A stretch of 36,278 bases of DNA, taken from a virus. Where the stretch lies: IMG/VR virus record IMGVR_UViG_3300006162_000032. One strand, given 5' to 3'. How positions within the stretch are numbered: position 1 is the stretch's first letter; the number at the start of each line of letters is the position of its first letter. Shown one piece after another: positions 5,489-19,127 of the stretch. The position numbers and the translations under genes were made by a program. Under the pieces are notes generated by a model. It saw nothing but the letters and a program-made list of their open reading frames with translations, had not been told where the DNA came from and did not search any database.

Positions 5489-5779
5489 ATGAAAAAGAAC
5501 CACGAACAAAGCAAAGAATTCACCAAGTTGTTGCTCGATCTGAAAGAACAGGGTTGGTCTATTTATATGAGACCGATTTTGCGAATCGTCGATGATACCT
5601 GGATACTCCGGCGGCGGTCTGATCCGTTGGAATTCCTGTTCGTCGCCGAAGACTTTCAGGTGTGGGAACGGAAGCGGTTCACCCGTGAACCGTTTGGTGA
5701 CTATACCGTGCCCTACCGCGATTTGGGTGGGGGCAAAGACCTGAAATCACTTTACCAGAACCTTACGAGGGCCGCCTGA
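5489..5779 (+). CDS. hypothetical protein (96 aa); last codons (..TRAA-stop) lie inside a family-A element
   Basis: GGAGAGAAAACA-ATG; stop TGA in hairpin loop. Confidence 0.55.
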   Translation: MKKNHEQSKEFTKLLLDLKEQGWSIYMRPILRIVDDTWILRRRSDPLEFLFVAEDFQVWERKRFTREPFGDYTVPYRDLGGGKDLKSLYQNLTRAA

Positions 5780-5793
5780 GAAGGCGGTAAGTA
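5765..5793 (+). repeat. family-A stem-loop element (stop codon of upstream gene in its loop)
   Basis: ACGAGGGCC-gcc-TGA-gaaggc-GGTAAGT. Confidence 0.75.
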
Positions 5794-5886
5794 CCGGGTC
5801 TCACCCAAGACGACAAGATCATGGTTGAGTAGTCCATGACGAGACTCCGAGCGCGTGCGGCCCGGTACTTCAAAAAGAGAGGAACA

Positions 5887-6090
5887 ATGATATATCACAT
5901 AGGACAGGAAAAAGGTGGGCGAATTAAATTCACAACGGATGTTGATTGCCTGTCTCCGCAGATCGTGAAATATACCAAAAAGAACTTCCAAAATCGGGGA
6001 GAGGTTCTATTGTTGGCCGAGGAACTGTGGAAACAGGGTCATGAAACCTGCGTTGATGATGAGGTTGGTTTGGTGGAGTTGGAACACTAA
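5887..6090 (+). CDS. hypothetical protein (67 aa)
   Basis: AAAAGAGAGGAACA-ATG; upstream 90-nt leader forms 10-bp helix AAGTACCGGG/CCCGGTACTT. Confidence 0.45.
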   Translation: MIYHIGQEKGGRIKFTTDVDCLSPQIVKYTKKNFQNRGEVLLLAEELWKQGHETCVDDEVGLVELEH

Positions 6091-6118
6091 CGAGGGCCGC
6101 CCGGTCGGGCGGTAAGTG
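6090..6118 (+). repeat. family-A stem-loop element
   Basis: TAA-CGAGGGCC-gcccggtcgggc-GGTAAGT. Confidence 0.8.
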
Positions 6119-6237
6119 ACGGGTCGGTTCGATTCCACTCGCCCGCGCCTAGTAAGGGTGTGTGTTTGTTGAGTCCCCTTCGAACGGCCAGTTGCAAGGA
6201 TGACGTCGATCCGTCACTTACCAAGGAGAGGAACAAA

Positions 6238-6549
6238 ATGACTTACAAAAGAAAAAAGTTGATTGTACTTCCGGAACGTCTCTTTCGTCAAAAGATCGAG
6301 GCGCAATTGGCAAAGGTTATCAATGCGGTCGAAGTCGCCCATGGTGAGGCGATGAGTCTCAGTATCATTGCCGAGGACCAGACCACGGCCCTGGACAATG
6401 ATCCCGAGGCACTGTCCCCGAAAAACAAACGGGCTTATAACCTGGCCGAGGATGTTTTGGAATGGGCGCAGGCCGTCGAGGAACTGTTGGATGGGGTGGA
6501 TACCGGGGCAATCCGGGCCAAGCTCAAAAAAGCAACGAGGGCCGCCTGA
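6238..6549 (+). CDS. hypothetical protein (103 aa); C-terminus ..ATRAA encoded by a truncated family-A copy
   Basis: AAGGAGAGGAACAAA-ATG; 12-bp helix GGTAAGTGACGG (6111-6122)/CCGTCACTTACC (6213-6224) abuts the SD. Confidence 0.5.
   Translation: MTYKRKKLIVLPERLFRQKIEAQLAKVINAVEVAHGEAMSLSIIAEDQTTALDNDPEALSPKNKRAYNLAEDVLEWAQAVEELLDGVDTGAIRAKLKKATRAA
6535..6549 (+). repeat. truncated family-A element (ACGAGGGCCGCCTGA) inside coding 3' end
   Basis: identical to the 5' half of the copy at 5765. Confidence 0.6.
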
Positions 6550-6557
6550 TGGCCAAA

Positions 6558-6590
6558 ACGAGGGCCGACTCAAAAATGAGTCGGTAAGTA
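6558..6590 (+). repeat. family-A stem-loop element
   Basis: ACGAGGGCC-gactcaaaaatgagtc-GGTAAGT. Confidence 0.8.
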
Positions 6591-6603
6591 CAAGGAGCGT
6601 AAT

Positions 6604-6846
6604 ATGCCAAAACTTTCGAAGGGTCAGATCGCCAACTTCCGAACATTGTCGAACGCCAATCACAACGACCGACTTTGTTTAATCGACTGCCAGGATAAGT
6701 CCACCGGAAAGTCGGTGGCCGTCGTGGCGGCGTTGAACATAGTCGGGAAAGAAATTGAGATTATTCCGTTGGCAAAGTTGTTCGACGGTAATCCCTATGA
6801 TGAGTTACTGCCGCCCAATCCGGACGGTGGTTATCATCAAGATTGA
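6604..6846 (+). CDS. hypothetical protein (80 aa)
   Basis: AAGGAGCGTAAT-ATG. Confidence 0.55.
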   Translation: MPKLSKGQIANFRTLSNANHNDRLCLIDCQDKSTGKSVAVVAALNIVGKEIEIIPLAKLFDGNPYDELLPPNPDGGYHQD

Positions 6847-6876
6847 ACGAGGGCGGTCACCCCGGTGACCGTAAGT
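6847..6876 (+). repeat. family-A stem-loop element
   Basis: ACGAGGGC-ggtcaccccggtgacc-GTAAGT. Confidence 0.8.
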
Positions 6877-6891
6877 ACAAAGGAGAACAAA

Positions 6892-7167: not shown

Positions 7168-7197
7168 ACGAGGGCCGGGTTGAAAACCCGGTAAGTA
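7168..7197 (+). repeat. family-A stem-loop element
   Basis: ACGAGGGCC-gggttgaaaaccc-GGTAAGT. Confidence 0.8.
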
Positions 7198-7209
7198 CAG
7201 GAGAAAAAC

Positions 7210-7446: not shown

Positions 7447-7447
7447 T

Positions 7448-7477
7448 ACGAGGGCGGTCACTTCGGTGGCCGTAAGT
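7448..7477 (+). repeat. family-A stem-loop element
   Basis: ACGAGGGC-ggtcacttcggtggcc-GTAAGT. Confidence 0.8.
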
Positions 7478-7492
7478 GCAAAGGAGATAACG

Positions 7493-7774
7493 ATGACTGA
7501 AAAAGATCACCCCGACGATATCTTAAAAGAATTGGGGTTTGTACAAACATATCCCAGAAAATCCGAGGGTGATACCAGATATTTTCGTGGCGAGGCAAGT
7601 GACCGCACCGCGATGATTATATGGTATTCCCAGGACGAGGGCACCGCCGGAATTCGTTACATCGACAACGGTAAAAGGGCAGGTCGACATATTTGGATCG
7701 GGTCATACTCAATTCTGGCCGATATGTTGGTCAAACTTAAAACAAATGGATTTTTTACGAGGGCCATTCCGTGA
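7493..7774 (+). CDS. hypothetical protein (93 aa); C-terminus FTRAIP-stop encoded inside family-A element
   Basis: AAAGGAGATAACG-ATG. Confidence 0.55.
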   Translation: MTEKDHPDDILKELGFVQTYPRKSEGDTRYFRGEASDRTAMIIWYSQDEGTAGIRYIDNGKRAGRHIWIGSYSILADMLVKLKTNGFFTRAIP

Positions 7775-7786
7775 GGAGTGGTAAGT
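7757..7786 (+). repeat. family-A stem-loop element (stop TGA in GNRA-like loop GTGA)
   Basis: ACGAGGGCC-attcc-GTGA-ggagtg-GTAAGT. Confidence 0.75.
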
Positions 7787-7810
7787 CCAAATATGGACTA
7801 AGGAGAACCA

Positions 7811-8141: not shown

Positions 8142-8170
8142 ATGAGGGCCGCCCACCTTGGGCGGTAAGT
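8142..8170 (+). repeat. family-A stem-loop element (variant ATGAGGGCC)
   Basis: ATGAGGGCC-gcccaccttgggc-GGTAAGT. Confidence 0.7.
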
Positions 8171-8197
8171 CCAAATATGGACTAAAAGGAGAACAAT

Positions 8198-8531: not shown

Positions 8532-8562
8532 ACAGAGGGTCGGACGATAAGTCCGGTAATGG
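8532..8562 (+). repeat. family-A stem-loop element (ACAGAGGG variant, 3' flank GGTAATGG fused to family-B leader)
   Basis: ACAGAGGGT-cggacgataagtccg-GTAATGG. Confidence 0.7.
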
Positions 8563-8626
8563 CAATGAGGGAAAACCTCAGAACTGAACGGTACCCGTTC
8601 AGTTTGCCATACCAGGAGAGGAACAT
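8556..8626 (+). promoter_or_regulatory. family-B structured 5' leader (three-way junction: ATGGCAA/TTGCCAT P1, GAGGG-AAAA-CCTC P2, variable P3) ending in ACCAGGAGAGGAACAT-ATG
   Basis: P1 and P3 complementarity; P3 = GAACTGAACGG/CCGTTCAGTT. Confidence 0.6.
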
Positions 8627-8822: not shown

Positions 8823-9065
8823 ATGTCAATACGATTGATTATCAAAGGCGACAAAGAAACCGCCCTGGTCGAGGCCTCCCTCGCAGATATCCGGCAGTAT
8901 AACTTTGTAAAGGAAAATCTGCAATCGGACGGTGAGACCAAGTATACCGAGGCACTCGCATCAGACGCCGATCTGGAACGGGTTGCCATCTGGTTCACGA
9001 AACAAAAACACGAGGAGGTTCCCTATCCACCGGGGACACTTCTTTGGTACCAGTTTGTTCCTTAG
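8823..9065 (+). CDS. hypothetical protein (80 aa)
   Basis: GAGGATAAC-ATG, 1-nt gap after upstream stop. Confidence 0.5.
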   Translation: MSIRLIIKGDKETALVEASLADIRQYNFVKENLQSDGETKYTEALASDADLERVAIWFTKQKHEEVPYPPGTLLWYQFVP

Positions 9066-9069
9066 TGAT

Positions 9070-9101
9070 ACGAGGGCATCCCCGGAAACGGGGGTGTAAG
9101 T
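9070..9101 (+). repeat. family-A stem-loop element
   Basis: ACGAGGGC-atccccggaaacgggggtg-TAAGT. Confidence 0.75.
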
Positions 9102-9134
9102 CCGATGAATCGGGCTTATACAGGAGAAGAACAA

Positions 9135-10697
9135 ATGAATCACCAAGAAATGTTGAAGTCGTTCTTGGCAGTTGAAGCGATGAAGTCGTACAACGTCGTT
9201 AGTCCAATAATGTTATCCAATCCGATATCCGTGTTAAAACGTATGACGCGCGATAAAGGTTGGAGTAACCAGGCCATTGTTGAAATGGGCCGTCGGAAAA
9301 TGCTGGGAAAGTTTCTGGGAAGTTACGTCTTGCGTAATGTTTCCGGAGATGAAATATACCAAAAATTTCCGGTGTTGGATTATTTGGGTGAAGTTTCGTT
9401 GTTCTCGAAACCCGCCGACTGTGTTACTTACCGGGGAACGCCCGAGCAAAATCAAGTAATTGATCGCGCCTTGGCCGTCTCTCCGGTAAATACTTCCAAT
9501 AATTTTTTTGGGAGTGGTATCGCCGGACGTTTGTCCACGTTTTATAACGTGATCAATTTGGACATTGGGAACACACCCATTGCCATCATCGGTGGTGGGG
9601 CGGCGGGCCAAATTGTACGATATGGCCTGAGTCGCACCGGATTTAAAAATGTAACTCTTTATGAAAAGGGCAAACCATTTGGAATCTGGTCACGGGAAGA
9701 TATCAAAGGCGGGAGTCGAAACAATCCTCGTAGATTGGTCCTGGGCGAGTATGCCCTGGAACCGGCGCCCGGCGAAGGATCGGAGGTACGGGATTTTCTG
9801 CAAAATATCCAGAACGCCAATTCATTAAACGTTATCACCAACGACGTCACCACGGTTACTCCGAACAATCTTGCCCACGGGGTTTATGACCGTGGTCAAA
9901 GTTTTAAGGAGTACCCCATCGTCATCAACTGCCTGGGACTGGGAAAACCGAAAAACCTCTCGGATCGCCACCGTATGGTGACATCTGCGGAGGTCACCCA
10001 CGCCGGTAACCGTTGGCAAAAGCGCCTCACTTACCCGCAAATTAAGGGAAAGAAATTTCTCTTTATTGGCCTGGGAAACTCTACCGCCGAGATGCTCCGG
10101 CAACTTCACGATGCCCAGGATCGAGGAATTGATACCGATTATTCGGTATTGACCCACTATCCCAAGGACTCCGTATTTAATCCGGATGATTACATCATCC
10201 AAAAAAACACGAAGTACCGGGTATTTCGTGATCTTTCTGCCTCGAACCTGGTAGATTACGAGGGCGATCTTCCCCAGAACCGGGCCGATTACTACCGGGC
10301 ACTGCGGACGGGGCGCATCGTGTCAGATGTCACCGGGTGGGACCGGATCATAAAAGACTTTGTGATCCGGCGGGGTCGTTCCCAGACCGAAACCAAAGTG
10401 GATGAGTTTTATAACCTGACCGGTTATGAGAATCGCCCCGACGATCTGGTGAACTTCGGTTGCAGTTTCCGGCACAATGAAATGCAATACGACTACGACG
10501 GAGAAATTCAAAAGTCTCCCGGACTGGCCGACCCGGAACTCCGGTTGCACAAAGGTTACTTTGGGTTTGGCGCCCTTCTGGGAACCTCCCACAACCCCAA
10601 CGCGATCGTGATTCCGGGTATGTTGCACCGCCTGGGCGACCTGTTGTTCGGGGTCATCGTGCGGTCTATGGAGTACAAAGAAAAACAGAACGACTAA
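9135..10697 (+). CDS. FAD/NAD(P)-binding oxidoreductase with two dinucleotide-binding motifs (flavin monooxygenase-like)
   Basis: IAIIGGGAAGQIV (GxGxxG) and FLFIGLGNSTAEML (second Rossmann, PvdA/IucD-like GxGxSxAE); CAGGAGAAGAACAA-ATG. Confidence 0.7.
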   Translation: MNHQEMLKSFLAVEAMKSYNVVSPIMLSNPISVLKRMTRDKGWSNQAIVEMGRRKMLGKFLGSYVLRNVSGDEIYQKFPVLDYLGEVSLFSKPADCVTYRGTPEQNQVIDRALAVSPVNTSNNFFGSGIAGRLSTFYNVINLDIGNTPIAIIGGGAAGQIVRYGLSRTGFKNVTLYEKGKPFGIWSREDIKGGSRNNPRRLVLGEYALEPAPGEGSEVRDFLQNIQNANSLNVITNDVTTVTPNNLAHGVYDRGQSFKEYPIVINCLGLGKPKNLSDRHRMVTSAEVTHAGNRWQKRLTYPQIKGKKFLFIGLGNSTAEMLRQLHDAQDRGIDTDYSVLTHYPKDSVFNPDDYIIQKNTKYRVFRDLSASNLVDYEGDLPQNRADYYRALRTGRIVSDVTGWDRIIKDFVIRRGRSQTETKVDEFYNLTGYENRPDDLVNFGCSFRHNEMQYDYDGEIQKSPGLADPELRLHKGYFGFGALLGTSHNPNAIVIPGMLHRLGDLLFGVIVRSMEYKEKQND

Positions 10698-10727
10698 CGA
10701 GGGTGGGTCACTTCGGTGACCCGTAAG
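10697..10727 (+). repeat. family-A stem-loop element
   Basis: ACGAGGGT-gggtcacttcggtgaccc-GTAAG. Confidence 0.75.
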
Positions 10728-10761
10728 ACCAATCAAATCTTTAAATAGGAGAGGAATTAAC

Positions 10762-11172
10762 ATGAAATGGATTGAATTGCTGCGGGAGATTGCCAAAGAA
10801 ATCAACAAAAATTCGTCACCGACGGATGTACTAGACCGGGGTGGCGACAATCTCTACAAAATATCACAGGGGAAGGCCCTATGGTGGGTTCTTTCGGCGT
10901 TGCGCGGTCCGGATGAACAGAACTCGCAAAATGGCATCAGCGACCATGATGCCAAATGGGCGACGACCGAGGTAATCCGAGGCCGTCTTGGCCTATGGGA
11001 GAACGGTAATCAGGCCAGTTGTTTATCTAGTACCTCCGATACGGCAGATAAGCTGGAACTCCGCAAACGGATAGTCACCACGGGGGATAACCATTTTGGT
11101 TATCACGCCCGGATGGCCTTTCACGTTTTGGGCCTGAAATGGGATGAGGTCAATAAAATCGAACCCATTTAA
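10762..11172 (+). CDS. hypothetical protein (136 aa)
   Basis: ATAGGAGAGGAATTAAC-ATG. Confidence 0.55.
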   Translation: MKWIELLREIAKEINKNSSPTDVLDRGGDNLYKISQGKALWWVLSALRGPDEQNSQNGISDHDAKWATTEVIRGRLGLWENGNQASCLSSTSDTADKLELRKRIVTTGDNHFGYHARMAFHVLGLKWDEVNKIEPI

Positions 11173-11193
11173 CAAGATGTAGTGTCCCTGATA

Positions 11194-11223
11194 ACGAGGG
11201 CCACGGAGAAATCCGTGGTAAGT
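11194..11223 (+). repeat. family-A stem-loop element
   Basis: ACGAGGGCC-acggagaaatccgtgg-TAAGT. Confidence 0.8.
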
Positions 11224-11241
11224 ACAAGGAGAGAATTTCAA

Positions 11242-11478
11242 ATGAACCGACAAAATGTAGAAAAAACCAAGAAAAGATTGGAAGAACTAGGAGTCATCTC
11301 CCTAAATGAACTGCGCACACGCCTGGCTAAAAAGGGTGTGTCGCCGAATATACCGCTCACCACGGCCATGGTGAAACATGTTGAAAGTTACCCCCGGCCG
11401 GAGGAAGTCGTGGCCATGGGACTGGCGATGATTATGTACGGAATGATCAAGATGGAAAGGCGAGGGAACCCCCTCTGA
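11242..11478 (+). CDS. hypothetical protein (78 aa)
   Basis: CAAGGAGAGAATTTCAA-ATG; stop TGA lies in loop of hairpin AACCCCC-TCTGA-GGGGGTT. Confidence 0.5.
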   Translation: MNRQNVEKTKKRLEELGVISLNELRTRLAKKGVSPNIPLTTAMVKHVESYPRPEEVVAMGLAMIMYGMIKMERRGNPL

Positions 11479-11498
11479 GGGGGTTTAAGGAGGGAAAT

Positions 11499-11741
11499 AT
11501 GACAACACAAGTGGGAATGATCGAGGTAGATTCGACCAATATCCAAAGTATCGGATATGACGTGCTGCGGCGGATTCTGTACGTAAGATTCCTGACCGGC
11601 CGCATGTATCGTTACTTTGGCGTAGGTCCCCTGACCTTCGGCCGCTTTCAACGGGCACATTCCAAGGGTCGTTTTTTCTACCAGTTCGTTCGATATCGTT
11701 ACAAGTATGAATTGGTGGAAAACGGCCGGAGGGTGGCATGA
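11499..11741 (+). CDS. hypothetical protein (80 aa)
   Basis: TAAGGAGGGAAAT-ATG. Confidence 0.55.
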   Translation: MTTQVGMIEVDSTNIQSIGYDVLRRILYVRFLTGRMYRYFGVGPLTFGRFQRAHSKGRFFYQFVRYRYKYELVENGRRVA

Positions 11742-11914
11742 GATGGCGGGTCAAGTACGAAACTGTACTGGAGGCAGAAAACCGCACCCAGGCGGTTCTT
11801 TTGGCGGAGTCTTTAATTCCAGAGAAATATTCTAAAGGGATGAAATACACCGTCGAGTTTATTGATCTTGATGAAGAGATGACAGAGGAAGAATATTCAG
11901 AGGGCGCCGGGTGA
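11738..11914 (+). CDS. hypothetical acidic 58-aa protein
   Basis: ATGA overlap with upstream stop; stop TGA in loop of following hairpin; below ORF-track cutoff. Confidence 0.35.
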   Translation: MRWRVKYETVLEAENRTQAVLLAESLIPEKYSKGMKYTVEFIDLDEEMTEEEYSEGAG

Positions 11915-12841: not shown

Positions 12842-12953
12842 CGAAGAGGAGCCTCAACATGGTTGGATCGCCACGATGATTGGGGCGGTAATCGTTGGGT
12901 TTTCGATTACCGGGGTCATCTTGATGGTTCAATGGTTTATAACGCGTCACTAA
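12828..12953 (+). CDS. hypothetical 41-aa membrane peptide
   Basis: overlaps 3' end of previous gene; TM segment IGAVIVGFSITGVILMV; stop abuts family-A element. Confidence 0.3.
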   Translation: MKNNDEEEPQHGWIATMIGAVIVGFSITGVILMVQWFITRH

Positions 12954-12983
12954 CGAGGGCCACGGGGGTAACCCGTGGTAAGT
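12953..12983 (+). repeat. family-A stem-loop element
   Basis: ACGAGGGCC-acgggggtaacccgtgg-TAAGT. Confidence 0.8.
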
Positions 12984-13002
12984 ACAAAGGAGAACGACAA
13001 AG

Positions 13003-13230
13003 ATGTGGAACCCATTTCGTAAGAAAAAAGCACCCGTTGTTGATCCAGTTTTTGATGCCATTGCCAACCGTCACGTTTGTCCAGACTGTAATAACGACAC
13101 ATTTTTTCAAGGACGACGGGGTGGGTTAAGTCAAAACATAAAATGTTCTAAGTGTGGTTCTGAATTTAACGTGGCGCCCTTCGAGGATGGCCAGTTTTTG
13201 GGCGAACCTTTTCTGGTAGAACGTATTTGA
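13003..13230 (+). CDS. Zn-ribbon protein (CPDC...CSKC; 75 aa)
   Basis: AAAGGAGAACGACAAAG-ATG. Confidence 0.55.
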   Translation: MWNPFRKKKAPVVDPVFDAIANRHVCPDCNNDTFFQGRRGGLSQNIKCSKCGSEFNVAPFEDGQFLGEPFLVERI

Positions 13231-13262
13231 ACGAGGGCCGTGGGATAACTTCCACGGTAAGT
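13231..13262 (+). repeat. family-A stem-loop element fused to family-B leader
   Basis: ACGAGGGCC-gtgggataacttccacg-GTAAGT. Confidence 0.8.
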
Positions 13263-13328
13263 GTGGCAGAGGGAAACCTCAGAGTGCGACGGCCTCCGCC
13301 GTCGACACTGCCATACCAGGAGAGGAAT
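13262..13328 (+). promoter_or_regulatory. family-B structured 5' leader (P1 TGGCAG/CTGCCA, a covariant of GGCAA/TTGCC)
   Basis: GAGGGAAACCTC P2; P3 GTGCGACGG/CCGTCGACAC; CCATACCAGGAGAGGAAT-ATG. Confidence 0.6.
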
Positions 13329-13547
13329 ATGCAAAACAAAATTATTGATGATTACATTCATCGATTACCTTGTAATCAACGGCGGTATGCGAGGGCATAT
13401 CGTACATGGTTACTGACCGGACAAAAGGGTTCGGCGCCCAATCCATTTGGCTTCCAGTTAAGTGGATTTGAAACTAGTCTGATCAAAAAGGTCATCGAAA
13501 ATGGGACCATTCAGGAGGCCCGGTATGCCAAGACCAAATCAGCCTGA
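13329..13547 (+). CDS. hypothetical protein (72 aa)
   Basis: start after family-B leader. Confidence 0.5.
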   Translation: MQNKIIDDYIHRLPCNQRRYARAYRTWLLTGQKGSAPNPFGFQLSGFETSLIKKVIENGTIQEARYAKTKSA

Positions 13548-13749
13548 GTTCGCCGTCAAAAAGAGCGAATTCGACGAAATACGACGGGTGATTCATCCGA
13601 CGATTACGTACGGTACCACCGAGGCGGGGCCGTTTAAGTACCTCATCTTTCCGGGTGAGACCGCGAGGCGTCGCGCGGTGATCGATGTTCAAACCGCCGG
13701 GTTCCGGGTATTTTATCAACGGTCTTGGGGAGGAATGGTAAAGGTATGA
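13525..13749 (+). CDS. hypothetical protein (74 aa)
   Basis: CAGGAGG at 13511-13517 then ATG 13525; overlaps upstream gene. Confidence 0.45.
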   Translation: MPRPNQPEFAVKKSEFDEIRRVIHPTITYGTTEAGPFKYLIFPGETARRRAVIDVQTAGFRVFYQRSWGGMVKV

Positions 13750-14003
13750 AAAAAGCAAAATCGACACCCAATCCGGAATGGACCGAGGAAAAGGTCAAAA
13801 AAGAATTACCCATGGTCAAACTCCAGGTTGGCCCACGGGTCATTCTTACTGCCGTTACTTCTGGTCGAATGTTAGATTATTGCGTAGTTTCCGTTTACTC
13901 CCATATGAATCTGGACGTGCCCCAGGTACGGGAAATGCGTCTGGAATTTTCCTGGGCGGCGGTTACTCGCAGTCTCAACGAAAATAAACCACTACAAATA
14001 TAA
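13746..14003 (+). CDS. hypothetical protein (85 aa)
   Basis: ATGA overlap. Confidence 0.5.
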   Translation: MKKAKSTPNPEWTEEKVKKELPMVKLQVGPRVILTAVTSGRMLDYCVVSVYSHMNLDVPQVREMRLEFSWAAVTRSLNENKPLQI

Positions 14004-14033
14004 CGAGGGCCGTGGGGAAAACCCACGGTAAGG
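14003..14033 (+). repeat. family-A stem-loop element (GGTAAGG variant)
   Basis: ACGAGGGCC-gtggggaaaacccac-GGTAAGG. Confidence 0.8.
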
Positions 14034-14066
14034 CCACAATAGAGTGAGCCTTGTAAGGAGAGGAAA
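14027..14066 (+). promoter_or_regulatory. family-C leader (GGTAAGGCCAC...GTGAGCCTT helix abutting AAGGAGAGGAAA-ATG)
   Basis: AAGGCCAC/GTGAGCCTT complementarity; related copies at 14318 and 14794. Confidence 0.45.
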
Positions 14067-14282
14067 ATGATCACGGATAGTATCAACAATCGCGATATGC
14101 GTCGTCAAGAAGCAATCAACAAGGCCATCGAGGCCGCCGATCGTATTATTCTGGAACACTCAGACGGATCGGTCGAAGAAACCAACTATCTAACCTCGGC
14201 CGTCGCCGTAAAGTGGGCCGAAAAGGTTCACCATGCAAACCAGCATGATTTGGCCCGGTACGATTTGAACCAGGCCGCCTAA
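14067..14282 (+). CDS. hypothetical protein (71 aa)
   Basis: GTAAGGAGAGGAAA-ATG. Confidence 0.5.
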   Translation: MITDSINNRDMRRQEAINKAIEAADRIILEHSDGSVEETNYLTSAVAVKWAEKVHHANQHDLARYDLNQAA

Positions 14283-14290
14283 GTTGTTTC

Positions 14291-14323
14291 CCCGAAGGCG
14301 GGTCACTCCGGTGACCCGTAAGG
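14291..14323 (+). repeat. family-A-like stem-loop (no ACGAGGG; stem gggtcactccggtgaccc + GTAAGG)
   Basis: same stem as copy at 10697. Confidence 0.55.
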
Positions 14324-14376
14324 CCACCATCCGGGGGCACGAAAACCGGAGTGAGCCTTATTAGGAGAGGAACAAT
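14318..14376 (+). promoter_or_regulatory. family-C leader with inserted hairpin TCCGGGGGCACGAAAACCGGA
   Basis: GTAAGGCCACC...GTGAGCCTT-ATTAGGAGAGGAACAAT-ATG. Confidence 0.45.
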
Positions 14377-14517
14377 ATGTCCCGAGACAAAGTGGTCAAA
14401 CGTCTGCAAGACGCGATCATGTGGTATGTTTCTCATGACGTGTATCGGTTGCTGATTGAACTTGCGTTTCTGGGTGGGGTGGCATCAGTTGCCATCGCCG
14501 GCGGCGCACGAGTATAA
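14377..14517 (+). CDS. hypothetical 46-aa protein with hydrophobic C-terminus
   Basis: TTAGGAGAGGAACAAT-ATG; below ORF-track cutoff. Confidence 0.35.
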   Translation: MSRDKVVKRLQDAIMWYVSHDVYRLLIELAFLGGVASVAIAGGARV

Positions 14518-14521
14518 ATCA

Positions 14522-14734
14522 ATGAACCGAAGACGACAAAGCCGTCTCCGGGCCAAGAATAGATTTTGGCGGGTTTACCACAGTATGTGGTTTAAACTGA
14601 TCGTGTTAGTGATTTTGATCGTGGCCGCTTTTCTTTTGCGACACGAGGCATTAACACTGACCGCGGTCGTCGTCAAGTCGATGGACATCGCCTGCGATTT
14701 ACTCGCCGACGGTGCTTTCAACGGTGGTGAATAG
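14522..14734 (+). CDS. hypothetical membrane protein (70 aa; Arg-rich N-terminus then TM)
   Basis: ATG 4 nt after upstream stop; TM LIVLVILIVAAFLL. Confidence 0.4.
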   Translation: MNRRRQSRLRAKNRFWRVYHSMWFKLIVLVILIVAAFLLRHEALTLTAVVVKSMDIACDLLADGAFNGGE

Positions 14735-14751
14735 AAACTCAAAACATATCT

Positions 14752-14766
14752 CTGCGATTATCGCAG
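14752..14766. promoter_or_regulatory. palindrome CTGCGATTATCGCAG (copy 1 of 2) between stop codon and family-A element
   Basis: second copy CTGCGATTCTCGCAG at 15592-15606 in identical context AAACATATCT-pal-TGATACGAGGGCC. Confidence 0.5.
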
Positions 14767-14770
14767 TGAT

Positions 14771-14800
14771 ACGAGGGCCGTGGGGAAACCCACGGTAAGG
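14771..14800 (+). repeat. family-A stem-loop element (GGTAAGG variant)
   Basis: ACGAGGGCC-gtggggaaacccac-GGTAAGG. Confidence 0.8.
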
Positions 14801-14853
14801 CACAAGCCGGGGGCACGAATCCGGCGGTGACCTTAAAAGTGGAGAGGAAAAAT
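14794..14853 (+). promoter_or_regulatory. family-C leader with hairpin GCCGGGGGCACGAATCCGGC
   Basis: GTAAGGCAC...GTGACCTT-AAAAGTGGAGAGGAAAAAT-ATG. Confidence 0.4.
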
Positions 14854-15069
14854 ATGGCACCCGAAAAACCAAAGGCCAAGACGGTAACCGTAGAGCTGCG
14901 CGTGGTTGATCCCAAGAAGGGAGCAGTCAAATACAGCCTTCCCAAGGATCAGTCCGGCGTACTCACCAACATCTACGTCAACCGTCTGGAGGCGATGAAA
15001 GAACTGGGTATCTCTGAACTCGGGGACCTCAAGGGTTTCAAGGTTACCCTGGAACCTATTACTGCGTGA
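14854..15069 (+). CDS. hypothetical protein (71 aa)
   Basis: GGAGAGGAAAAAT-ATG. Confidence 0.5.
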   Translation: MAPEKPKAKTVTVELRVVDPKKGAVKYSLPKDQSGVLTNIYVNRLEAMKELGISELGDLKGFKVTLEPITA

Positions 15070-15098
15070 CGAGGGCCGGCCCATCTGGGCCGGTAAGT
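15069..15098 (+). repeat. family-A stem-loop element
   Basis: TGA-CGAGGGCC-ggcccatctgggcc-GGTAAGT. Confidence 0.8.
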
Positions 15099-15111
15099 AC
15101 CGGAGGAAACA

Positions 15112-15234
15112 ATGAACAAACTTAAACAACTCGGAGAGTACGTAGTAGTACTGGCGGTCGTCGTAATCATTATCATCGGCAGTCGCCACCTAATCGGCGA
15201 CAATGTTAATCTGGTTTATAGCGTGGTTCGTTAA
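15112..15234 (+). CDS. hypothetical 40-aa membrane peptide
   Basis: CCGGAGGAAACA-ATG; TM VVVLAVVVIIIIG; below ORF-track cutoff. Confidence 0.35.
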   Translation: MNKLKQLGEYVVVLAVVVIIIIGSRHLIGDNVNLVYSVVR

Positions 15235-15261
15235 CGAGGGCCGTGGGAAACCACGGTAAGT
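15234..15261 (+). repeat. family-A stem-loop element
   Basis: TAA-CGAGGGCC-gtgggaaaccac-GGTAAGT. Confidence 0.8.
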
Positions 15262-15297
15262 CAATCTCCCCATTGACTTGAAAGGAGGACGCGCGAT

Positions 15298-15405
15298 ATG
15301 TGGCCATTTAACTTGCACCCCGTCTTCATGGGGTTTACCTGGTTTGATATCTCCGCAACCGCGTGGTTTTTTTTGTTGTGGTTGTTGTATCGGCAAGTTC
15401 ACTAA
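15298..15405 (+). CDS. hypothetical 35-aa hydrophobic peptide
   Basis: GAAAGGAGGACGCGCGAT-ATG; Trp/Phe/Leu-rich. Confidence 0.3.
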   Translation: MWPFNLHPVFMGFTWFDISATAWFFLLWLLYRQVH

Positions 15406-15416
15406 AGGAGAAAACA

Positions 15417-15575
15417 ATGAAAACACTGTGGAAGTCCGAAGAAGGGCAAGATATCGCAGAATACGCCGTGATGCTGGCGGTAATTCTGGTAATCGTCGTC
15501 GGTACGGTTCGCCTGATTGGAAGCAATTCCAATAACGTTTTTTCAAGTGCGGCGAGCGCCGTGGCGGCGCAGTAA
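15417..15575 (+). CDS. flp: Flp/Fap-family type IVb pilin-like protein (52 aa)
   Basis: MKTLWKSEEGQDIAEYAVMLAVILVIVVGTV matches Flp pilin signature (EEG-x-x-x-IEY-[AG]-hydrophobic stretch); CTAAAGGAGAAAACA-ATG. Confidence 0.55.
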   Translation: MKTLWKSEEGQDIAEYAVMLAVILVIVVGTVRLIGSNSNNVFSSAASAVAAQ

Positions 15576-15591
15576 AAATAAAAACATATCT

Positions 15592-15606
15592 CTGCGATTC
15601 TCGCAG
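15592..15606. promoter_or_regulatory. palindrome CTGCGATTCTCGCAG (copy 2 of 2)
   Basis: see 14752-14766. Confidence 0.5.
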
Positions 15607-15610
15607 TGAT

Positions 15611-15640
15611 ACGAGGGCCGCGGGGAAACCCGCGGTAAGT
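15611..15640 (+). repeat. family-A stem-loop element
   Basis: ACGAGGGCC-gcggggaaacccgcg-GTAAGT. Confidence 0.8.
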
Positions 15641-15706
15641 ACAGCCGGGAAAAAATCCCAAACAAGAAACTTAAACCGTCTCTTGTTGCTGTACCAGGAG
15701 AGGAAC
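15637..15706 (+). promoter_or_regulatory. family-B-like structured leader (variant, paralog of 5118-5183)
   Basis: TACAGC/GCTGTA P1, GGGAAAAAATCCC, AACAAGA...TCTCTTGTT, CCAGGAGAGGAAC-ATG. Confidence 0.55.
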
Positions 15707-15946
15707 ATGAAACTAATCTACGTTATCAACCACCATTCCAATGAAGATTACATGAACAATCTGGCAATCGTCGAAGTAGGACCGGACGACGCCTCTGAAA
15801 GTGGAATGACCATCGGAACAAAAATTGAACGGTACAGAAATTTGTTAAAGGTTAAGTACCCGTTTCATCATTCCATCGTGTTCATGGGTCACTTCCAGGG
15901 AGGTATTCATGTAATGCCATTCCAAGATTTAGAGATATTCATGTAA
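15707..15946 (+). CDS. hypothetical protein (79 aa); C-terminus altered by 32-bp tandem duplication
   Basis: start after conserved leader; ORF-track extension LLYQERN is translated leader. Confidence 0.5.
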   Translation: MKLIYVINHHSNEDYMNNLAIVEVGPDDASESGMTIGTKIERYRNLLKVKYPFHHSIVFMGHFQGGIHVMPFQDLEIFM

Positions 15947-15968
15947 TGCCATTCCAAGATTTAGAGAT
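15905..15968 (+). repeat. perfect 32-bp tandem duplication (ATTCATGTAATGCCATTCCAAGATTTAGAGAT x2)
   Basis: directly visible; without second copy the gene would end ...DLEI-TGA-CGAGGGCC as at other family-A junctions. Confidence 0.9.
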
Positions 15969-15971
15969 ATG

Positions 15972-15998
15972 ACGAGGGCCGTGGGAAACCACGGTAAG
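15972..15998 (+). repeat. family-A stem-loop element
   Basis: ACGAGGGCC-gtgggaaaccac-GGTAAGT. Confidence 0.8.
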
Positions 15999-16068
15999 TA
16001 TGGTTAATGAGGGGAAACCTCAGAACCAAGAGACTTCGTCTCTTGGTTTGCCATACCAGGAGAGGAAC
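15999..16068 (+). promoter_or_regulatory. family-B structured 5' leader
   Basis: ATGG..TTAATGAGGGGAAACCTCAG; P3 AACCAAGAGAC/GTCTCTTGGTT; TTGCCATACCAGGAGAGGAAC-ATG. Confidence 0.6.
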
Positions 16069-17172
16069 ATGAGTACAGCAACGTACCAAGTTACATCACC
16101 CGTGGACGATCCCTACTCGTCTTTGATTGATGAGTTTCTGTGGCGGGAGTTTCCCGTCGCCGCGGCTCCTCCAAAACAATCATTGCTCGAGATTATCACC
16201 GGTATTCTCTTGGGAACGAACCAGAATCGTTATGGTCCGATCCCGAAACCCGAGGCACTGGTGACAATTCGGGCGGTCATCCGGCAGAGTCTCGAACTGG
16301 GTAAGGCAATTCCGGTGCTGGTTCCCTGGGGCGGCCGAAAGGCCAAGACGGGGGCCATTCTGGATGTGGCCGAGGTCATGGCACTGAAACAACTCGCCTG
16401 CCTTTACCGGCAGGTTCGGGAAGTCTTCACACCATCTATCCAGTTTAATCTTCGTGTTGAAGATATCAACGCGGAGTATCTCTACCAAGAAGATGGCCCA
16501 GTCGGAGCAGAAATGGTGGAAGAGTACTCACAGGGTTTGTCGGCCTTGGTTCGGATTCTAAATCTTCATTTTGTGAATCCGGTCCGGGAAAAACATCTGA
16601 CTACCTATGAGGCCTACTTTGCCCTGGCCGACCAGATACAAGATGCCATGTACGAGTATCTGGTGGATAGTGACCAACCGGGTTATGACCGGAATAAATC
16701 CAAGTCTTGGGCAAAATTGCAGGACTTGGGTTGGTCTGGGGAAATTCCCACGGAGCAACGGGAGTATTACCGTCGACGGTATCGGGCCTGGGAACCGGGC
16801 ATTACGGAGTTCGCGGCCAATGTCAAGTTGGCGCGGTACTTCGCGGGCGCCCTGGCCCGGTACAAACTGCGGGCCTCGGGCGCAGATAAAAGTTGGACTG
16901 ATTATATTCAGATCAGCTTTACGCCGCCCGTACCCGGTGCCCCGGAGTCCTTTACCAATCGCATGTTGTACTATCGAACCATCGTCGAACGTTTGTCCAG
17001 AAATCACATGCCACCCTGGCGGGGTCGGGGTTACATTGCAATGATCGGACGGACGGCGGTTCCCAAACTTGCAAGTTTTCAAGAAAATCTTTCCTTGATT
17101 TCGCACCAAACTCGGTTGTCGAGAAACGGGGAAGACGTAGATGTTGATACAAGTTATTTGGTCAAACAATAA
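16069..17172 (+). CDS. hypothetical 367-aa protein (likely enzyme; no motif recognised)
   Basis: long ORF after family-B leader; ORF-track N-terminal 23 aa are translated leader. Confidence 0.65.
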   Translation: MSTATYQVTSPVDDPYSSLIDEFLWREFPVAAAPPKQSLLEIITGILLGTNQNRYGPIPKPEALVTIRAVIRQSLELGKAIPVLVPWGGRKAKTGAILDVAEVMALKQLACLYRQVREVFTPSIQFNLRVEDINAEYLYQEDGPVGAEMVEEYSQGLSALVRILNLHFVNPVREKHLTTYEAYFALADQIQDAMYEYLVDSDQPGYDRNKSKSWAKLQDLGWSGEIPTEQREYYRRRYRAWEPGITEFAANVKLARYFAGALARYKLRASGADKSWTDYIQISFTPPVPGAPESFTNRMLYYRTIVERLSRNHMPPWRGRGYIAMIGRTAVPKLASFQENLSLISHQTRLSRNGEDVDVDTSYLVKQ

Positions 17173-17201
17173 CAGAGGGACGCGGCGAACCTGCCGCGTT
17201 A
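17172..17201 (+). repeat. family-A-like stem-loop (ACAGAGGGAC-gcggcgaacctgccgcg-TTAATG)
   Basis: variant flanks. Confidence 0.55.
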
Positions 17202-17219
17202 ATGAACAGGAGGGAAAGC

Positions 17220-17411
17220 ATGCCAGAATTAGATCGGGTTTGGATGTTGGTAGATCGAGAAGGGGTAGTTTTGTATCATCGCCCCGGAACATCTGCCAGC
17301 GAGGCCTGGGAGTATGCCGTAAAGGACGTGAAGGATATCACGGGGTGGGATGCCAGTCTTCTCAAGAAAAAGGGCTTTCGAGCAAAAAAAAGTGATTATC
17401 AGTTTGCCTAA
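17220..17411 (+). CDS. hypothetical protein (63 aa)
   Basis: CAGGAGGGAAAGC-ATG. Confidence 0.5.
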   Translation: MPELDRVWMLVDREGVVLYHRPGTSASEAWEYAVKDVKDITGWDASLLKKKGFRAKKSDYQFA

Positions 17412-17431
17412 TAAGCCCATTCCTAGTAACT

Positions 17432-17460
17432 CAGAGGGCCGTGGGTAAATCCACGGTAAT
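17432..17460 (+). repeat. family-A stem-loop element (CAGAGGGCC ... GGTAATGG) fused to family-B leader
   Basis: CAGAGGGCC-gtgggtaaatccac-GGTAATGG. Confidence 0.75.
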
Positions 17461-17524
17461 GGCAATGAGGGGAAACCTCAAACATGCGGCTTCGCCGCAA
17501 TGTTTGCCATACCAGGAGAGGAAC
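17455..17524 (+). promoter_or_regulatory. family-B structured 5' leader
   Basis: TAATGGCAATGAGGGGAAACCTCA; P3 AACATGCGGC/GCCGCAATGTT; TTGCCATACCAGGAGAGGAAC-ATG. Confidence 0.6.
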
Positions 17525-17695
17525 ATGAAAGAGCCAATTAAAGTAGAACTCGGAGAAAAAGAATTGCGAGAATTATTAAATGGCCGCACAATCACCGTGC
17601 GGGATCGGCACCGCGAGATAGAAATCACCGCCACCGCGGCGGGGTTTCTGGCCGAGCGTGCGGTGATGGACGAAAATCCCGTTTTGAAAGTGTAA
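17525..17695 (+). CDS. hypothetical protein (56 aa)
   Basis: start after family-B leader. Confidence 0.5.
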   Translation: MKEPIKVELGEKELRELLNGRTITVRDRHREIEITATAAGFLAERAVMDENPVLKV

Positions 17696-17709
17696 AAGTA
17701 GTGGTAAAA

Positions 17710-17742
17710 ACGAGGGCCGGGGGATATATTTCCCCGGTAAGT
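17710..17742 (+). repeat. family-A stem-loop element
   Basis: ACGAGGGCC-gggggatatatttcccc-GGTAAGT. Confidence 0.8.
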
Positions 17743-17763
17743 AAATATCAAAGGAGAACGTAA

Positions 17764-19113
17764 GTGGAAGAAAAAGAATTATTAGATCGTGCAAAATCCG
17801 GCGATCAAGACGCGTTCTCCCAAATATATCGTGACCAGTTATCGCGGGTAAAAAAAACTTTGCGCAAATATTGGCAACTGAATGAAGACGCCGTGGAAGA
17901 ACTGGCCCAGGTGACCTTTACGAAGGCCTTTCTGGCCATCGGCGATTTTCGAGGTGAGGCCAAATTAAGTTCCTGGTTGCATCAAATTGCGCACCGGGAA
18001 TTTTTGATGTACCTACGAAGAAAGAACAATCTTTCAGAAGTATCCTTGGATAATCCCATCAATGAAGATGGAAACACCCTGGATTTGCCGGATACTCCGG
18101 ATAAAACCATAGATTCCTGGATCACACGTGAGCATTTTTTGCGCTTGTTACCGTATTTGAATAGGAGCCGGCGCCGCGTGTTGTTTCTTAGATTTCTGGA
18201 AGAAAAAACTTTGGAAGAAACCGCCGGAATTTTAAATTTGTCCGTCGGGGCCGTAAAGGCCTATCAATCACACGGTTTGAGTGATCTTCGAGTGTTGTGG
18301 GAGAGCAAATCAATGAGCAAATCAATGAGCAAGAAAAAACGAAGGTTGCGGCGCGAAAAACTGGTCGCCGCGGCCGCCCGGGAACACATCGGGAGTCCAC
18401 CACCGACGCAAATACGAAGTTCACGGAATGCGGGGGCGTCCAGATTCAATGAAACGGAACTGGGTAGTTATTACCATCTGAGCGGACGCGACCCTCGTGC
18501 CCCGAATCAAATATTTACGTCGCACGGACTTCTGGCAAAAACCCCCGTGAATCTCCGTCCCCCCCGGACGGTCACAGCACCGGGGCCGGTTCGGCAGTAT
18601 ACCCAGGAAGAGATTGTTCATCAAAACTATCTCTTTCAACTAAAACAACAAGGAGAGAAAACAATGGAACAAATACCAAGTGGATCACCACCGACCATCG
18701 AGTCTTTGATATCTGATGCCCATCGCAAGGTACAGTTTTATACCCGGCAGGCCGCGGAATCCGAGGCCGAGGCCCGTAAGTGGACCGCGGTGATTGAACA
18801 ACTGACAAGTGCCCACGATATTATCACGGGAAAGAAGTCGATTAATGCGACGGCCCATGATGAGGTCAATGGAAATGCCCCGCAGACTCGTTCACCACGA
18901 GGATATTGGGAACCGGTCTTAAAACAGATACTCGCCGATGGGCCTCTTCCTAAGAACGAATTAGTTCAGAAGATGATGACCGCGGGTACCACAAATGGTC
19001 AGGCCTATTCGATCATCCGTCGATGCCAAGATAAAGAATTAATCCTGGAATCGGATGGAAAACTGCACTGGATGGCGCCGGTCACCGAAGAACAACCGAG
19101 GGCCGCGGGGTAA
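17764..19113 (+). CDS. ECF-type sigma-70 family factor (regions 2 and 4) with about 260-aa C-terminal extension
   Basis: region 2: AVEELAQVTFTKAFLAIGDF...SSWLHQIAHREFLMYLRRK; region 4: RRVLFLRFLEEKTLEETAGILNLSVGAVKAYQSHGLSDLR; AAAGGAGAACGTAA-GTG start; in-frame internal AAGGAGAGAAAACA-ATG at 18664. Confidence 0.75.
   Translation: MEEKELLDRAKSGDQDAFSQIYRDQLSRVKKTLRKYWQLNEDAVEELAQVTFTKAFLAIGDFRGEAKLSSWLHQIAHREFLMYLRRKNNLSEVSLDNPINEDGNTLDLPDTPDKTIDSWITREHFLRLLPYLNRSRRRVLFLRFLEEKTLEETAGILNLSVGAVKAYQSHGLSDLRVLWESKSMSKSMSKKKRRLRREKLVAAAAREHIGSPPPTQIRSSRNAGASRFNETELGSYYHLSGRDPRAPNQIFTSHGLLAKTPVNLRPPRTVTAPGPVRQYTQEEIVHQNYLFQLKQQGEKTMEQIPSGSPPTIESLISDAHRKVQFYTRQAAESEAEARKWTAVIEQLTSAHDIITGKKSINATAHDEVNGNAPQTRSPRGYWEPVLKQILADGPLPKNELVQKMMTAGTTNGQAYSIIRRCQDKELILESDGKLHWMAPVTEEQPRAAG
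18303..18326 (+). repeat. 12-bp tandem repeat (GAGCAAATCAAT x2) inside sigma-factor extension (SKSMSKSM)
   Basis: directly visible. Confidence 0.8.
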
Positions 19114-19127
19114 TACCCGTGGTAAGG
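19097..19127 (+). repeat. family-A stem-loop element (stop TAA of sigma gene in loop)
   Basis: CGAGGGCC-gcggggTAAtacccgtg-GTAAGG. Confidence 0.7.

Follow-up and report, generated by a model that had tools for sequence, protein, structure and literature searches.

In the early region of phage T7, RNase III hairpins placed between cistrons cut a long transcript and leave a protective hairpin at the 3′ end. In T4-type phages the modules called PeSLs, in which a terminator-like stem-loop is joined to an early promoter, flank small early ORFans in a plastic region. For the twister and hammerhead ribozymes of bacteria and phages, which are clustered near phage genes, reviews only suggest a possible role in the processing of polycistronic mRNAs (PMC6765202, PMC10085705). 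The locus considered here lies in a 36,278-nucleotide stretch of phage DNA (IMG/VR record IMGVR_UViG_3300006162_000032; hereafter the window), in which a short hairpin module, the family-A element, recurs between small genes. In primary sequence and predicted pairing these elements show homology to the L1/P1/P2 part of the type-P5 twister, and they are read here, with a probability of about one half, as twister-derived intercistronic RNA processing sites of one early operon, which would be cut at U^AA (the caret marks the scissile bond). Operons laid out as stop codon, twister and ribosome-binding site (RBS) make the mRNA-punctuation idea directly testable, and this phage is a natural test case.

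The family-A element and its transcription unit

The family-A motif reads [A/C][C/A]-GAGGG-GC-rich hairpin-UAA-[GU/UG] and is present in approximately 36 copies, all on the + strand, between 4422 and 21031. The sequence ACGAGGGC occurs 30 times in the window against 1.04 expected, with 29 of the 30 on the + strand. A covariance model (R1) built from seven copies and applied at a cut-off of E<1e-3 recovers 31 copies, every one of them on that strand and within those limits, and no copy was found in 10 kb of upstream or approximately 24 kb of downstream sequence. Two boxes are conserved, GAGGG in about 34 of the 36 copies and UAA in 35, and the 16-21 nucleotides (nt) between them are filled by a covarying hairpin, P1, with a predicted stability of -9 to -17 kcal/mol. 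An element is present after almost every small gene of the operon, and its two sequence subtypes (AC type and CA type) are grouped by position. The minimal intergenic regions measure 36-46 nt; here UAAGUAC passes directly into the Shine-Dalgarno sequence, which begins 5-7 nt past the 3′ box. The GAGG beside the stop codon itself resembles a Shine-Dalgarno core.

Since the copies lie between a promoter-like and a terminator-like site, with none outside, they are treated here as parts of one early transcript of approximately 18 kb and some 40 small genes. The best sigma-70-like promoter upstream of the block (TTTTCA-17-TATAAT, 2826-2854, + strand) is a consensus match only, and comparable + strand sites inside the block are not above chance. 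The putative end of the transcript is an intrinsic-terminator-like hairpin with a T run at 21117-21150, directly after the last copy and the sole good + strand candidate. Both calls are consensus matches only, for a host whose promoter type may differ. Downstream of the promoter lies an operon leader of 1.3-1.4 kb without a credible open reading frame (ORF) (2855-4149, in an ORF-free stretch at 2721-4149), which bears twister-related modules. The credible genes of the window are all on the + strand, and its G+C content is about 0.50.

Compensatory changes, GNRA and UUCG loops and the confinement of all copies to one strand of a single transcription unit show the family-A element to be an RNA-level structure. 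The alignment was fitted to the covariance model, with hairpins located via their conserved flanks and not via pairing; 97.7% of its cells are paired, 69 cells are changed on both sides, and the covariation score is 0.73 compared with 0.17 in shuffles, none of 500 of which reaches 0.73. In slid-partner controls pairing falls to 27-42%. P1 forms a hairpin of 6-8 base pairs (bp) in every copy, with 99.5% of cells paired and five of the six modelled pairs changed on both sides. Ten of the 25 four-nucleotide loops are GNRA (P ~2e-9) and two are UUCG, although this tally, like that of the T2a positions given below, was made partly by eye. GAGGG and UAA are near-invariant, whereas the P1 stems have diverged with compensation, and this catalytic/substrate half of the ribozyme is under clear purifying selection.

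The presence of a sigma-70 family gene (17764-19113) within the block, and of two conserved boxes in each element, might suggest transcription signals, either promoters for this phage sigma factor or terminators and attenuators. Such a function is scarcely credible: the interval between the boxes varies and is occupied by a covarying hairpin, the proximity of the Shine-Dalgarno sequence in minimal copies leaves no room for a start site, and no T run follows the hairpins. Intrinsic terminators were rejected on the same count, as the hairpins are followed by UAAGUAC or UAAUGG, with no U run, and none is listed in the + strand terminator scan.

A sequence-only reading of this DNA had taken the repeats for intergenic elements that insert or recombine, overprint gene 3′ ends and shuffle small-ORF cassettes. 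That part of it stands in which elements supply the last codons of some genes and carry footprints of recombination or duplication, namely a truncated copy at 6535-6549 and identical stretches of 22-59 nt common to otherwise diverged, distant copies (e.g. 14741-14799/15581-15639 and 15234-15261/15972-15999); the elements as a class are not generic DNA repeats but RNA-level structures. Repeats of the DNA, akin to T4 PeSL cassettes, miniature inverted-repeat transposable elements or integron attC sites, would also account for same-strand ORFan cassettes each closed by an imperfect palindrome whose ends are conserved, for gene-less degenerate copies in the leader and for subtypes grouped by position. 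As the primary nature of the element this is nevertheless improbable, given the GNRA/UUCG enrichment, the confinement of all copies to the transcribed strand of one unit and the homology to an RNA enzyme. Furthermore, no integrase or recombinase is on record among the Pfam-matched products of the window or the examined flanks, and the stems differ between copies, which are thus not recent transposition products. No exchange was seen, every other available contig with this phage being ~100% identical. Cassette shuffling at the DNA level is possible as a side effect.

The specific DNA-level candidates each share features with the locus. T4-type PeSLs are likewise repeated intergenic modules beside small early ORFans, with signs of inter-copy recombination; the conserved flanks here are instead ribozyme core nucleotides, and the elements carry no sigma-70-like sites, + strand matches in the block being at chance level (the host promoter type may differ). 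Integron cassettes are promoterless, same-strand units that end in an imperfect inverted repeat, variable in its stem and conserved at its ends, and depend on one upstream promoter. The family-A element is much shorter than attC, its loop types and twister homology are RNA-specific, its flanks are GAGGG/UAA and not R″/R′ (RYYYAAC..GTTRRRY), and no recombinase domain occurs among the Pfam-matched products of the window and flanks.

Homology to the type-P5 twister

The core of the family-A element corresponds to the 5′ half of a type-P5 twister (RF02684), with the same order and identity of parts: P2b, GA, GGG (the T1 strand), a GC-rich P1 (often with a GAAA loop), the scissile U^AA and P2a. A scan of the whole window against 4227 Rfam families gave eight matches at E<=5, six of them to Twister-P5; these six are all on the + strand and at modules (starting at 3494, 3987, 14770, 17173, 17430 and 20998). 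The alignments show cGCA-GA-GGG-P1-UAA-UGC, with the GAGGG and UAA of the copies placed on the GAGgG and UAA of the model, whose P4 is aligned to hairpins with non-L4 loops (GGAAA, UAAU). Between copies the P2 pairs covary, AC/GU with CA/UG and CC/GG, and also AU/GU.

One copy is complete. A permissive Rfam scan of the leader identified a type-P5 twister at 3987-4117, ahead of the first gene (Twister-P5, 30 bits, E 0.015 for the whole window), which contains all the parts named when the twister was defined (PMC5408937). P2 is formed by GCA (3988-90) and UGC (4038-40), followed by GA (3991-92), the T1 strand GGG (3993-95) and an 8-bp P1 (3996-4003/4027-4034); U4035^A4036 A4037 would be the cleavage site, and T2a is GC (4041-42). 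An optional P3 insert is closed by CGUGG (4043-47) and CCACG (4097-4101), and P4 (CCAG 4102-05/CUGG 4114-17) bears the L4 loop UCCCAAGC (4106-13). P1, a 3-bp P2, P4, L1, L4 and the complementarities of T1 (GGG:CCC) and T2 (GC:GC) are all present, and the fold z-score is -5.0. The copy scores below the RF02684 gathering score (30 against 37.6 bits) because of its 23-nt P1 loop and 59-nt P3 insert.

That every Rfam match falls below the gathering score, and that only some eight conserved letters are held in common, would fit a coincidental resemblance in which the motif is an unrelated hairpin family. This is very improbable: six independent sub-threshold matches fall to one of 4227 families and to one strand, a complete twister heads the operon, P2 covaries as it does in twisters, and the layout is identical to that of the complete-twister arrays described below.

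Other structured RNAs fit less well. The published twister-sister core (L1 GCAAG, GCUC^AU) differs from GAGGG/UAA (PMC5660989), and no twister-sister match was reported by the Rfam scan, in which overlapping matches of the same clan are suppressed. Hammerhead, pistol and hatchet cores are absent from the element, ARAGORN finds no tRNA-like structure, and the flanks fit none of kink-turns, sarcin-ricin motifs, RNase P or RNase III substrates, nut-like sites or T4 gene-60-type bypassing. In contrast to the T7 hairpins, the stems here, at 6-8 bp, are not long enough for RNase III, and the conserved flanks correspond to a ribozyme core.

Twister arrays in other phage contigs

When IMG/VR was scanned for exact patterns of the canonical type-P5 twister, 56 loci were recovered, several of them with arrays of complete twisters arranged as stop codon-CA-GAGGG-P1-UAA-UGC-AC-P4/L4-AAGGAGA-ATG. 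In L152 (IMGVR_UViG_3300027896_000024, 82.9 kb, G+C 0.497), 14 complete twisters occupy 8.3 kb (8904-17223), the unit being UAG-CA-GAGGG-P1-UAA-UGC-AC-P4/L4(UCCCAAGU)-AAAAAGGAGAGAACAAC-ATG. The stop codon there mostly lies 2 nt before GAGGG, and in the arrays UAG often overlaps P2b. Ahead of the first twister of L152 lie a promoter-like site recognised by eye (TTGACA/CATAAT) and a non-coding leader of about 650 nt. L152 derives from JGI sample 3300027896, numbered adjacent to two samples that contain the present phage. Four to seven complete twisters each are found in L138, L141, L142 and L143, with the same layout in genomes of 52-72% G+C; complete type-P5 arrays also occur in L111, L110 and L132.

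The present operon shares with the arrays of L152/L113, L138, L141, L142, L143 and L111 a stop codon that abuts or overlaps P2b, followed by P1, UAA, a strong AAGGAGA RBS and ATG, all on one strand, and with L152 also a promoter and long non-coding leader before the first copy, a similar G+C content and the same sample series. In contrast to this phage, every copy in the complete-twister arrays has L4 in cis, and in L152 no ORF was seen to read into a twister. No protein similarity was detected between the window and the complete-twister contigs, nor any similarity between the leader of this phage and that of L152 beyond the twister parts. As judged from these contigs, the layout of stop codon, twister and RBS is general, and this phage alone has lost L4. 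No description of such an array layout was found in the literature searched.

Absence of P4/L4

Several observations weigh against processing by the repeated copies. P4/L4 is absent from about 35 of the 36, which leaves them unable to form, in cis, the tertiary elements that define a twister, T1 and T2. Around each copy, 90 nt on the upstream side and 200 nt on the downstream side were scanned with a descriptor for CCC..AA-loop hairpins, and a proper L4 was found only at 3987, three other matches being close to chance level. The scan thus revealed no L4 concealed in coding sequence upstream of the copies or within the long-form 3′ domains described below, and the minimal intergenic regions have no room for one. 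In the place of P4, some copies have a hairpin whose loop (GGAAA, UAAU or GGGCACGAAU) is unrelated to L4. L4 is missing at 23 of 25 strict sites in the window, whereas essentially all of approximately 75 sites in the 56 comparison loci have it within 110 nt, one comparison site lacking it only by the strict motif. In tested twisters the pseudoknots and the L4-P4/L1-T1 architecture are needed for activity, the pseudoknots being least tolerant of damage and P1 dispensable (PMC5408937, PMC11662667). P2 is also reduced from 4 bp to 2 bp, with positions 3 and 4 unpaired and the inner two pairs 92% paired (AU:22/CG:9 and CG:24/AU:4), no Rfam match in the window reaches its gathering score, and no phage relative was found that would show conservation of the half-sites over time. 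By this inventory of predicted parts, some 35 family-A copies are not self-contained twisters.

The copies may accordingly be dead, with P1 and its flanks now serving only as intercistronic hairpins, whether as a 3′ stabiliser that resists exonucleases, an insulator separating translation units, a block to Rho or a binding site for a protein or RNase, of the phage or the host, by which any cutting would be done. The missing scaffold, the stability of P1 and the Shine-Dalgarno-like GAGG make this a serious competitor, if one that falls well short of even odds. It gives no reason for GA, GGG, U-AA and a 2-bp P2 to remain invariant or covarying while the stems drift, nor does it account for ORFs that never end at or beyond UAA; no candidate RNA-binding protein was found, almost all block genes being without family matches.

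Proposed processing of the early transcript

Under the processing-site reading, the transcript would be cut between U and AA, just 3′ of P1, at each module. Each upstream cistron would be left with a terminal P1 hairpin and a 2′,3′-cyclic phosphate, and each downstream cistron with a 5′-OH a few nucleotides before its Shine-Dalgarno sequence. The module retains a 2-bp P2, GA (with the general-base G), the GGG of T1, the P1 hairpin and U^AA (scissile bond and general-acid A). We infer that cleavage at the half-sites persists, as GA, GGG and U-AA are near-invariant while the stems drift, and a plain hairpin would not need them. Processing of polycistronic transcripts is the role proposed for bacterial twisters and hammerheads (PMC6765202, PMC10085705). 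In the absence of L4 in cis, however, cutting would need an L4 supplied by the leader, or some other helper, or would be slow.

The first of these options amounts to a split twister, in which some 35 L4-less half-sites would be cut only when a leader-encoded L4 hairpin docks on GGG. Complementation in trans is conceivable, since the retained half contains both catalytic nucleotides and lacks nothing but the scaffold, and the leader has two candidate donors: an orphan CAGG-UCCCAAGU-CCUG hairpin (3517-3532) and the 3′ product of the 3987-4117 twister (P2a, T2, P3 and P4/L4). The two L4 loops of the leader have GU and GC as their last bases, AC or GC stands at T2a in about 17 of the 36 half-sites, and the L152 group uses AC:GU for T2, a match that is suggestive only. 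A contact of just 3-5 base pairs and a shortened P2 weigh against the split arrangement, which we regard as unlikely, albeit worth entertaining. The VS ribozyme is known to cleave a hairpin in trans through a 3-bp kissing contact, and to our knowledge nothing comparable to such reduced or trans action has been shown for twister. In minimal twister-sister-like ribozymes the catalytic internal loop works without the peripheral domain (PMC11620745). These precedents differ in belonging to other ribozyme classes, and twister pseudoknots are reported to be essential. If the split arrangement were true, one small RNA domain would process the whole early operon and could time its processing. More generally, twister chemistry that works with a trans scaffold would constitute a natural multiple-turnover small ribozyme and a compact means of processing some 35 junctions; the alternative outcome, a ribozyme core re-used for a non-catalytic job, would also be informative. 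No prior description was found of an array that holds only the catalytic/substrate half with a complete ribozyme and an orphan L4 upstream. If the 3987-4117 twister cuts, a non-coding RNA of approximately 1.2 kb would be released from the leader.

Gene ends at the elements

The positions of stop codons bear on this reading, and gene ends were taken from the independent gene calls of the public-assembly pipeline. The sequence-only reading had placed stop codons inside the hairpin loops of several copies, and these were all recovered, in the loop or with its closing base: TGA at 5777-5779, 7772-7774, 11476-11478 and 11912-11914 and TAA at 19111-19113. The hairpin at 11476-11478, then described merely as similar, is real (11467-11485) and a true family member, as is that at 11905-11923 (CGAGGG/AGAGGG, hairpin and UAA/UUA). 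The shared ..TRAA* tail of the genes ending at 5779 and 6549 was borne out and is encoded by ACGAGGGCCGCCTGA; the ..TRAIP* tail at 7774 is likewise real, and the sigma-factor gene ends ..PRAAG*. The reported truncated copy at 6535-6549 proved to be a 5′ fragment of 15 nt that repeats the beginning of the 5765 copy exactly and is followed by a full copy (6558-6591).

Thirty-three genes have an element within approximately 40 nt downstream. Nineteen stop 1-3 nt before GAGGG, five stop in the loop and the rest stop 4-37 nt before, so that reading into the element is a minority pattern (5/33). Where the stop ahead of GAGGG is missing, the ORF runs into P1, reading ACG-AGG-GCC... (T-R-A...) and ending in the loop, which explains both the stop-in-loop cases and the shared ..TRAA and ..TRAIP tails. 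GC-only stems cannot hold stop codons, whereas loops such as GUGA, (U)GAGA and GUAAUA can; this composition suffices, and no special mechanism for placing stops in loops is needed. The result accounts for odd C-terminal tails, such as ..TRAA, shared by several phage proteins, a matter of use in annotation. Over 34 elements and three frames, the first stop falls in the loop in 12 cases, at the UAA past the hairpin in 30, in the stem in three and further on in 57. All five real read-ins belong to the loop class (9e-4 against the UAA class, ~1e-5 against all classes), in a test that is partly circular, the five being among the 12.

Frames that would stop at the UAA after P1 are used in none of the 30 cases: all 33 genes stop before P1 or in its loop, and no ORF crosses U^AA. 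This would be expected if the RNA is cut there, as a cut between U and A would abolish this stop; every model of the element as a boundary predicts the same, and the observation is supporting only. The sequence-only reading had also suggested that termination and hairpin unfolding are coupled. From the known footprint of the ribosome, one that terminates 1-3 nt before GAGGG or in the loop would unavoidably, on physical grounds, cover or melt the hairpin.

The five read-in copies are 5765-5794 (ORF 5489-5779, ..TRAA*, where UGA comprises the closing U and the GA of a GAGA loop; recovered by R1), 7757-7788 (ORF 7493-7774, ..TRAIP*, stop within a GUGA loop; recovered by R1), the variants 11460-11490 (ORF 11242-11478, ..RGNPL*, UGA in the loop) and 11898-11928 (UUA for UAA; ORF 11738-11914, UGA in the loop), and 19096-19129 (CC/GG P2; sigma-factor ORF 17764-19113, UAA in the loop; R1). 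The fragment at 6535-6549 (ACGAGGGCCGCCUGA) gives the ..TRAA* of ORF 6238-6549.

Individual modules

All of the modules are on the + strand. In the leader, an orphan twister ‘enzyme-side’ module (3494-3532; Rfam Twister-P5 22.9 bits) has a P2-like CGU/ACG, AC and the P4/L4 hairpin already mentioned, without GGG-P1-UAA, and its minimum-free-energy fold displays the L4 loop on a 5-bp stem. UCCCAAG occurs in a hairpin loop at two places only, this module and 4106. A degenerate gene-less copy at 3605-3656, read by eye, consists of CA-GAGGG-C-[CUUGCGA..UCGCGAG]-AAUC and a CAGG..CCUG hairpin with a non-L4 loop. The leader also contains several hairpins with GAGAAUC motifs (about 3080-3100, 3573-3598, 3627-3637 and 4060-4070) and a direct repeat, AGGGACUCUCCUCC, at 3940 and 4008.

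The first half-site, of AC type, lies at 4422-4453 (R1 32.2 bits), abutted by the stop TAA at 4420-22, and minimal forms lie at 5447-5476 (41.6 bits) and 7168-7198 (R1; 42-nt intergenic region). Further half-sites recovered by R1 are those at 6090-6119, 6558-6591, 6847-6878, 7448-7479 (UUCG loop), 8142-8172 (AU/GU P2), 9070-9103, 11194-11225, 12612-12645, 12953-12985, 14003-14035, 15069-15100, 15234-15263 and 17710-17744, the last upstream of the sigma-factor gene, together with the CA-type half-sites at 12215-12244, 19858-19890 and 20432-20463. Two variants were recognised by reading the sequence, ACGAGGG-U..G-UAAGA with a UUCG loop at 10697-10728, missed by R1, and CC-GAAGG-P1-UAA-GG at 14292-14323. 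The half-site at 14771-14824 (R1 26.8 bits; Rfam Twister-P5 23.6 bits) is followed by the P4-position hairpin with loop GGGCACGAAU, and a CA-type half-site at 17173-17204 scores 24.7 bits with Twister-P5. The last copy, also of CA type (20998-21048; 29.7 bits, E 0.018 for the whole window), has a CCG-UAAU-CGG hairpin in the P4 position, without L4.

Seven half-sites are extended by a long-form 3′ domain (5116-5183, 8557-8626, 13258-13328, 15636-15706, 15995-16068, 17457-17524 and 19381-19449), in which two hairpins, one small (GAGG-GGAAA-CCUC or GGGA-..-UCCC) and one variable, are enclosed by a helix that reads GUAUGGCAA/UUGCCAUAC or GUACAG/CUGUAC and shows compensatory changes. The domain stops one base ahead of AGGAGAGGAAC-AUG and can be likened to the P3 insert of the complete twister (UUGCCAUACCA at 4085-4095). 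The modules concerned, all recovered by R1, are 5091-5183 (half-site 5091-5122; GUACAG/CUGUAC around two hairpins, ending at the RBS), 8533-8626 (CA type, half-site 8533-8563), 13231-13328 (13231-13264), 15611-15706 (15611-15642), 15972-16068 (15972-16001), 17432-17524 (CA type, with GAGG-GGAAA-CCUC in the P4 position and a Twister-P5 alignment at 23 bits) and 19358-19449 (CA type).

The phage and its other genes

The window encodes products typical of virulent phages: the sigma-70 family protein (17764-19113), a C5 DNA methylase, a T4 Rnl1-type RNA ligase, an Acb2/Tad1-like protein, an MVP-shoulder protein, an SNF2 helicase and ThyX. In JGI, ENA and Logan assemblies its sequence recurs at ~100% identity on contigs of 71.7 kb and 99.6 kb and on several that are shorter. 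A megablast search revealed no close relative among GenBank phages, tblastn matches of the helicase and sigma factor were all below 40% identity, and IMG/VR peptide scans with the sigma factor and RNA ligase gave no match. The MVP-like protein led to jumbo-phage contigs with just two genes in common with the window, and homologues of the flavoprotein and RNA ligase occur in unrelated contexts. Scans of IMG/VR, JGI metagenomes and GTDB genomes for exact patterns of the element returned single chance or coding matches only, and Pfam and PHROGs gave almost no family match for ten block proteins.

The sigma factor has regions 2 and 4 within its first 180 residues and a C-terminal extension of some 270 residues without a family match; the sole match in a homologue search was the identical phage protein, the query being inaccurate in its C-terminal third and the search weak on distant relatives. 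A 520-residue NAD(P)/FAD-binding protein of the early block (9135-10697) has its best homologues, at ~43-44% identity, in Patescibacteria/Paceibacterota, which may hint at the host or at horizontal acquisition. The small proteins 12302-12592 and 21962-22372 are paralogues (~44% identity over ~80 residues); with the weakly similar ORFs 15112-15234 and 15417-15575 they are the only duplicated genes of the block. A strong terminator (CCCAGGUCCAUUUUUUAGACCUGGG and a U run) lies in 22373-22637, followed by a GTATCA microsatellite and a promoter-like region, and from there onward the genes overlap or abut, without twister-like modules.

Enzymes of the RNA ligase and Metallophos types handle 2′,3′-cyclic-phosphate and 5′-OH ends, which are the products of ribozyme cleavage, and are usually read as repairing tRNAs against anticodon nucleases. 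In the window the T4 Rnl1-type ligase lies close to a weak Metallophos-family protein (26607-27212; region 24308-27212), and any link between this pair and the twister sites is speculation. A sub-threshold glmS ribozyme match at 33401-33579 (24.6 bits against 37; E 0.06) falls within a coding region and is probably due to chance. At 28807 the window is without one A that is found in two other assemblies, which splits the 851-residue MVP-shoulder gene into 27422-28873 and 28807-29976; the missing base reflects either a real frameshift variant or a mistake in sequencing or assembly. In a coding region at approximately 2335-2400, the window and contig L087 have different copy numbers of a 14-nt tandem repeat (GGGCAACCGCGCCG). 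Finally, an 86-nt stretch at the junction of the RNA ligase and Acb2-like genes (25391-25476) recurs inverted and 95% identical at 7163-7247 of L087, about 28 kb away in the same genome and upstream of the window.

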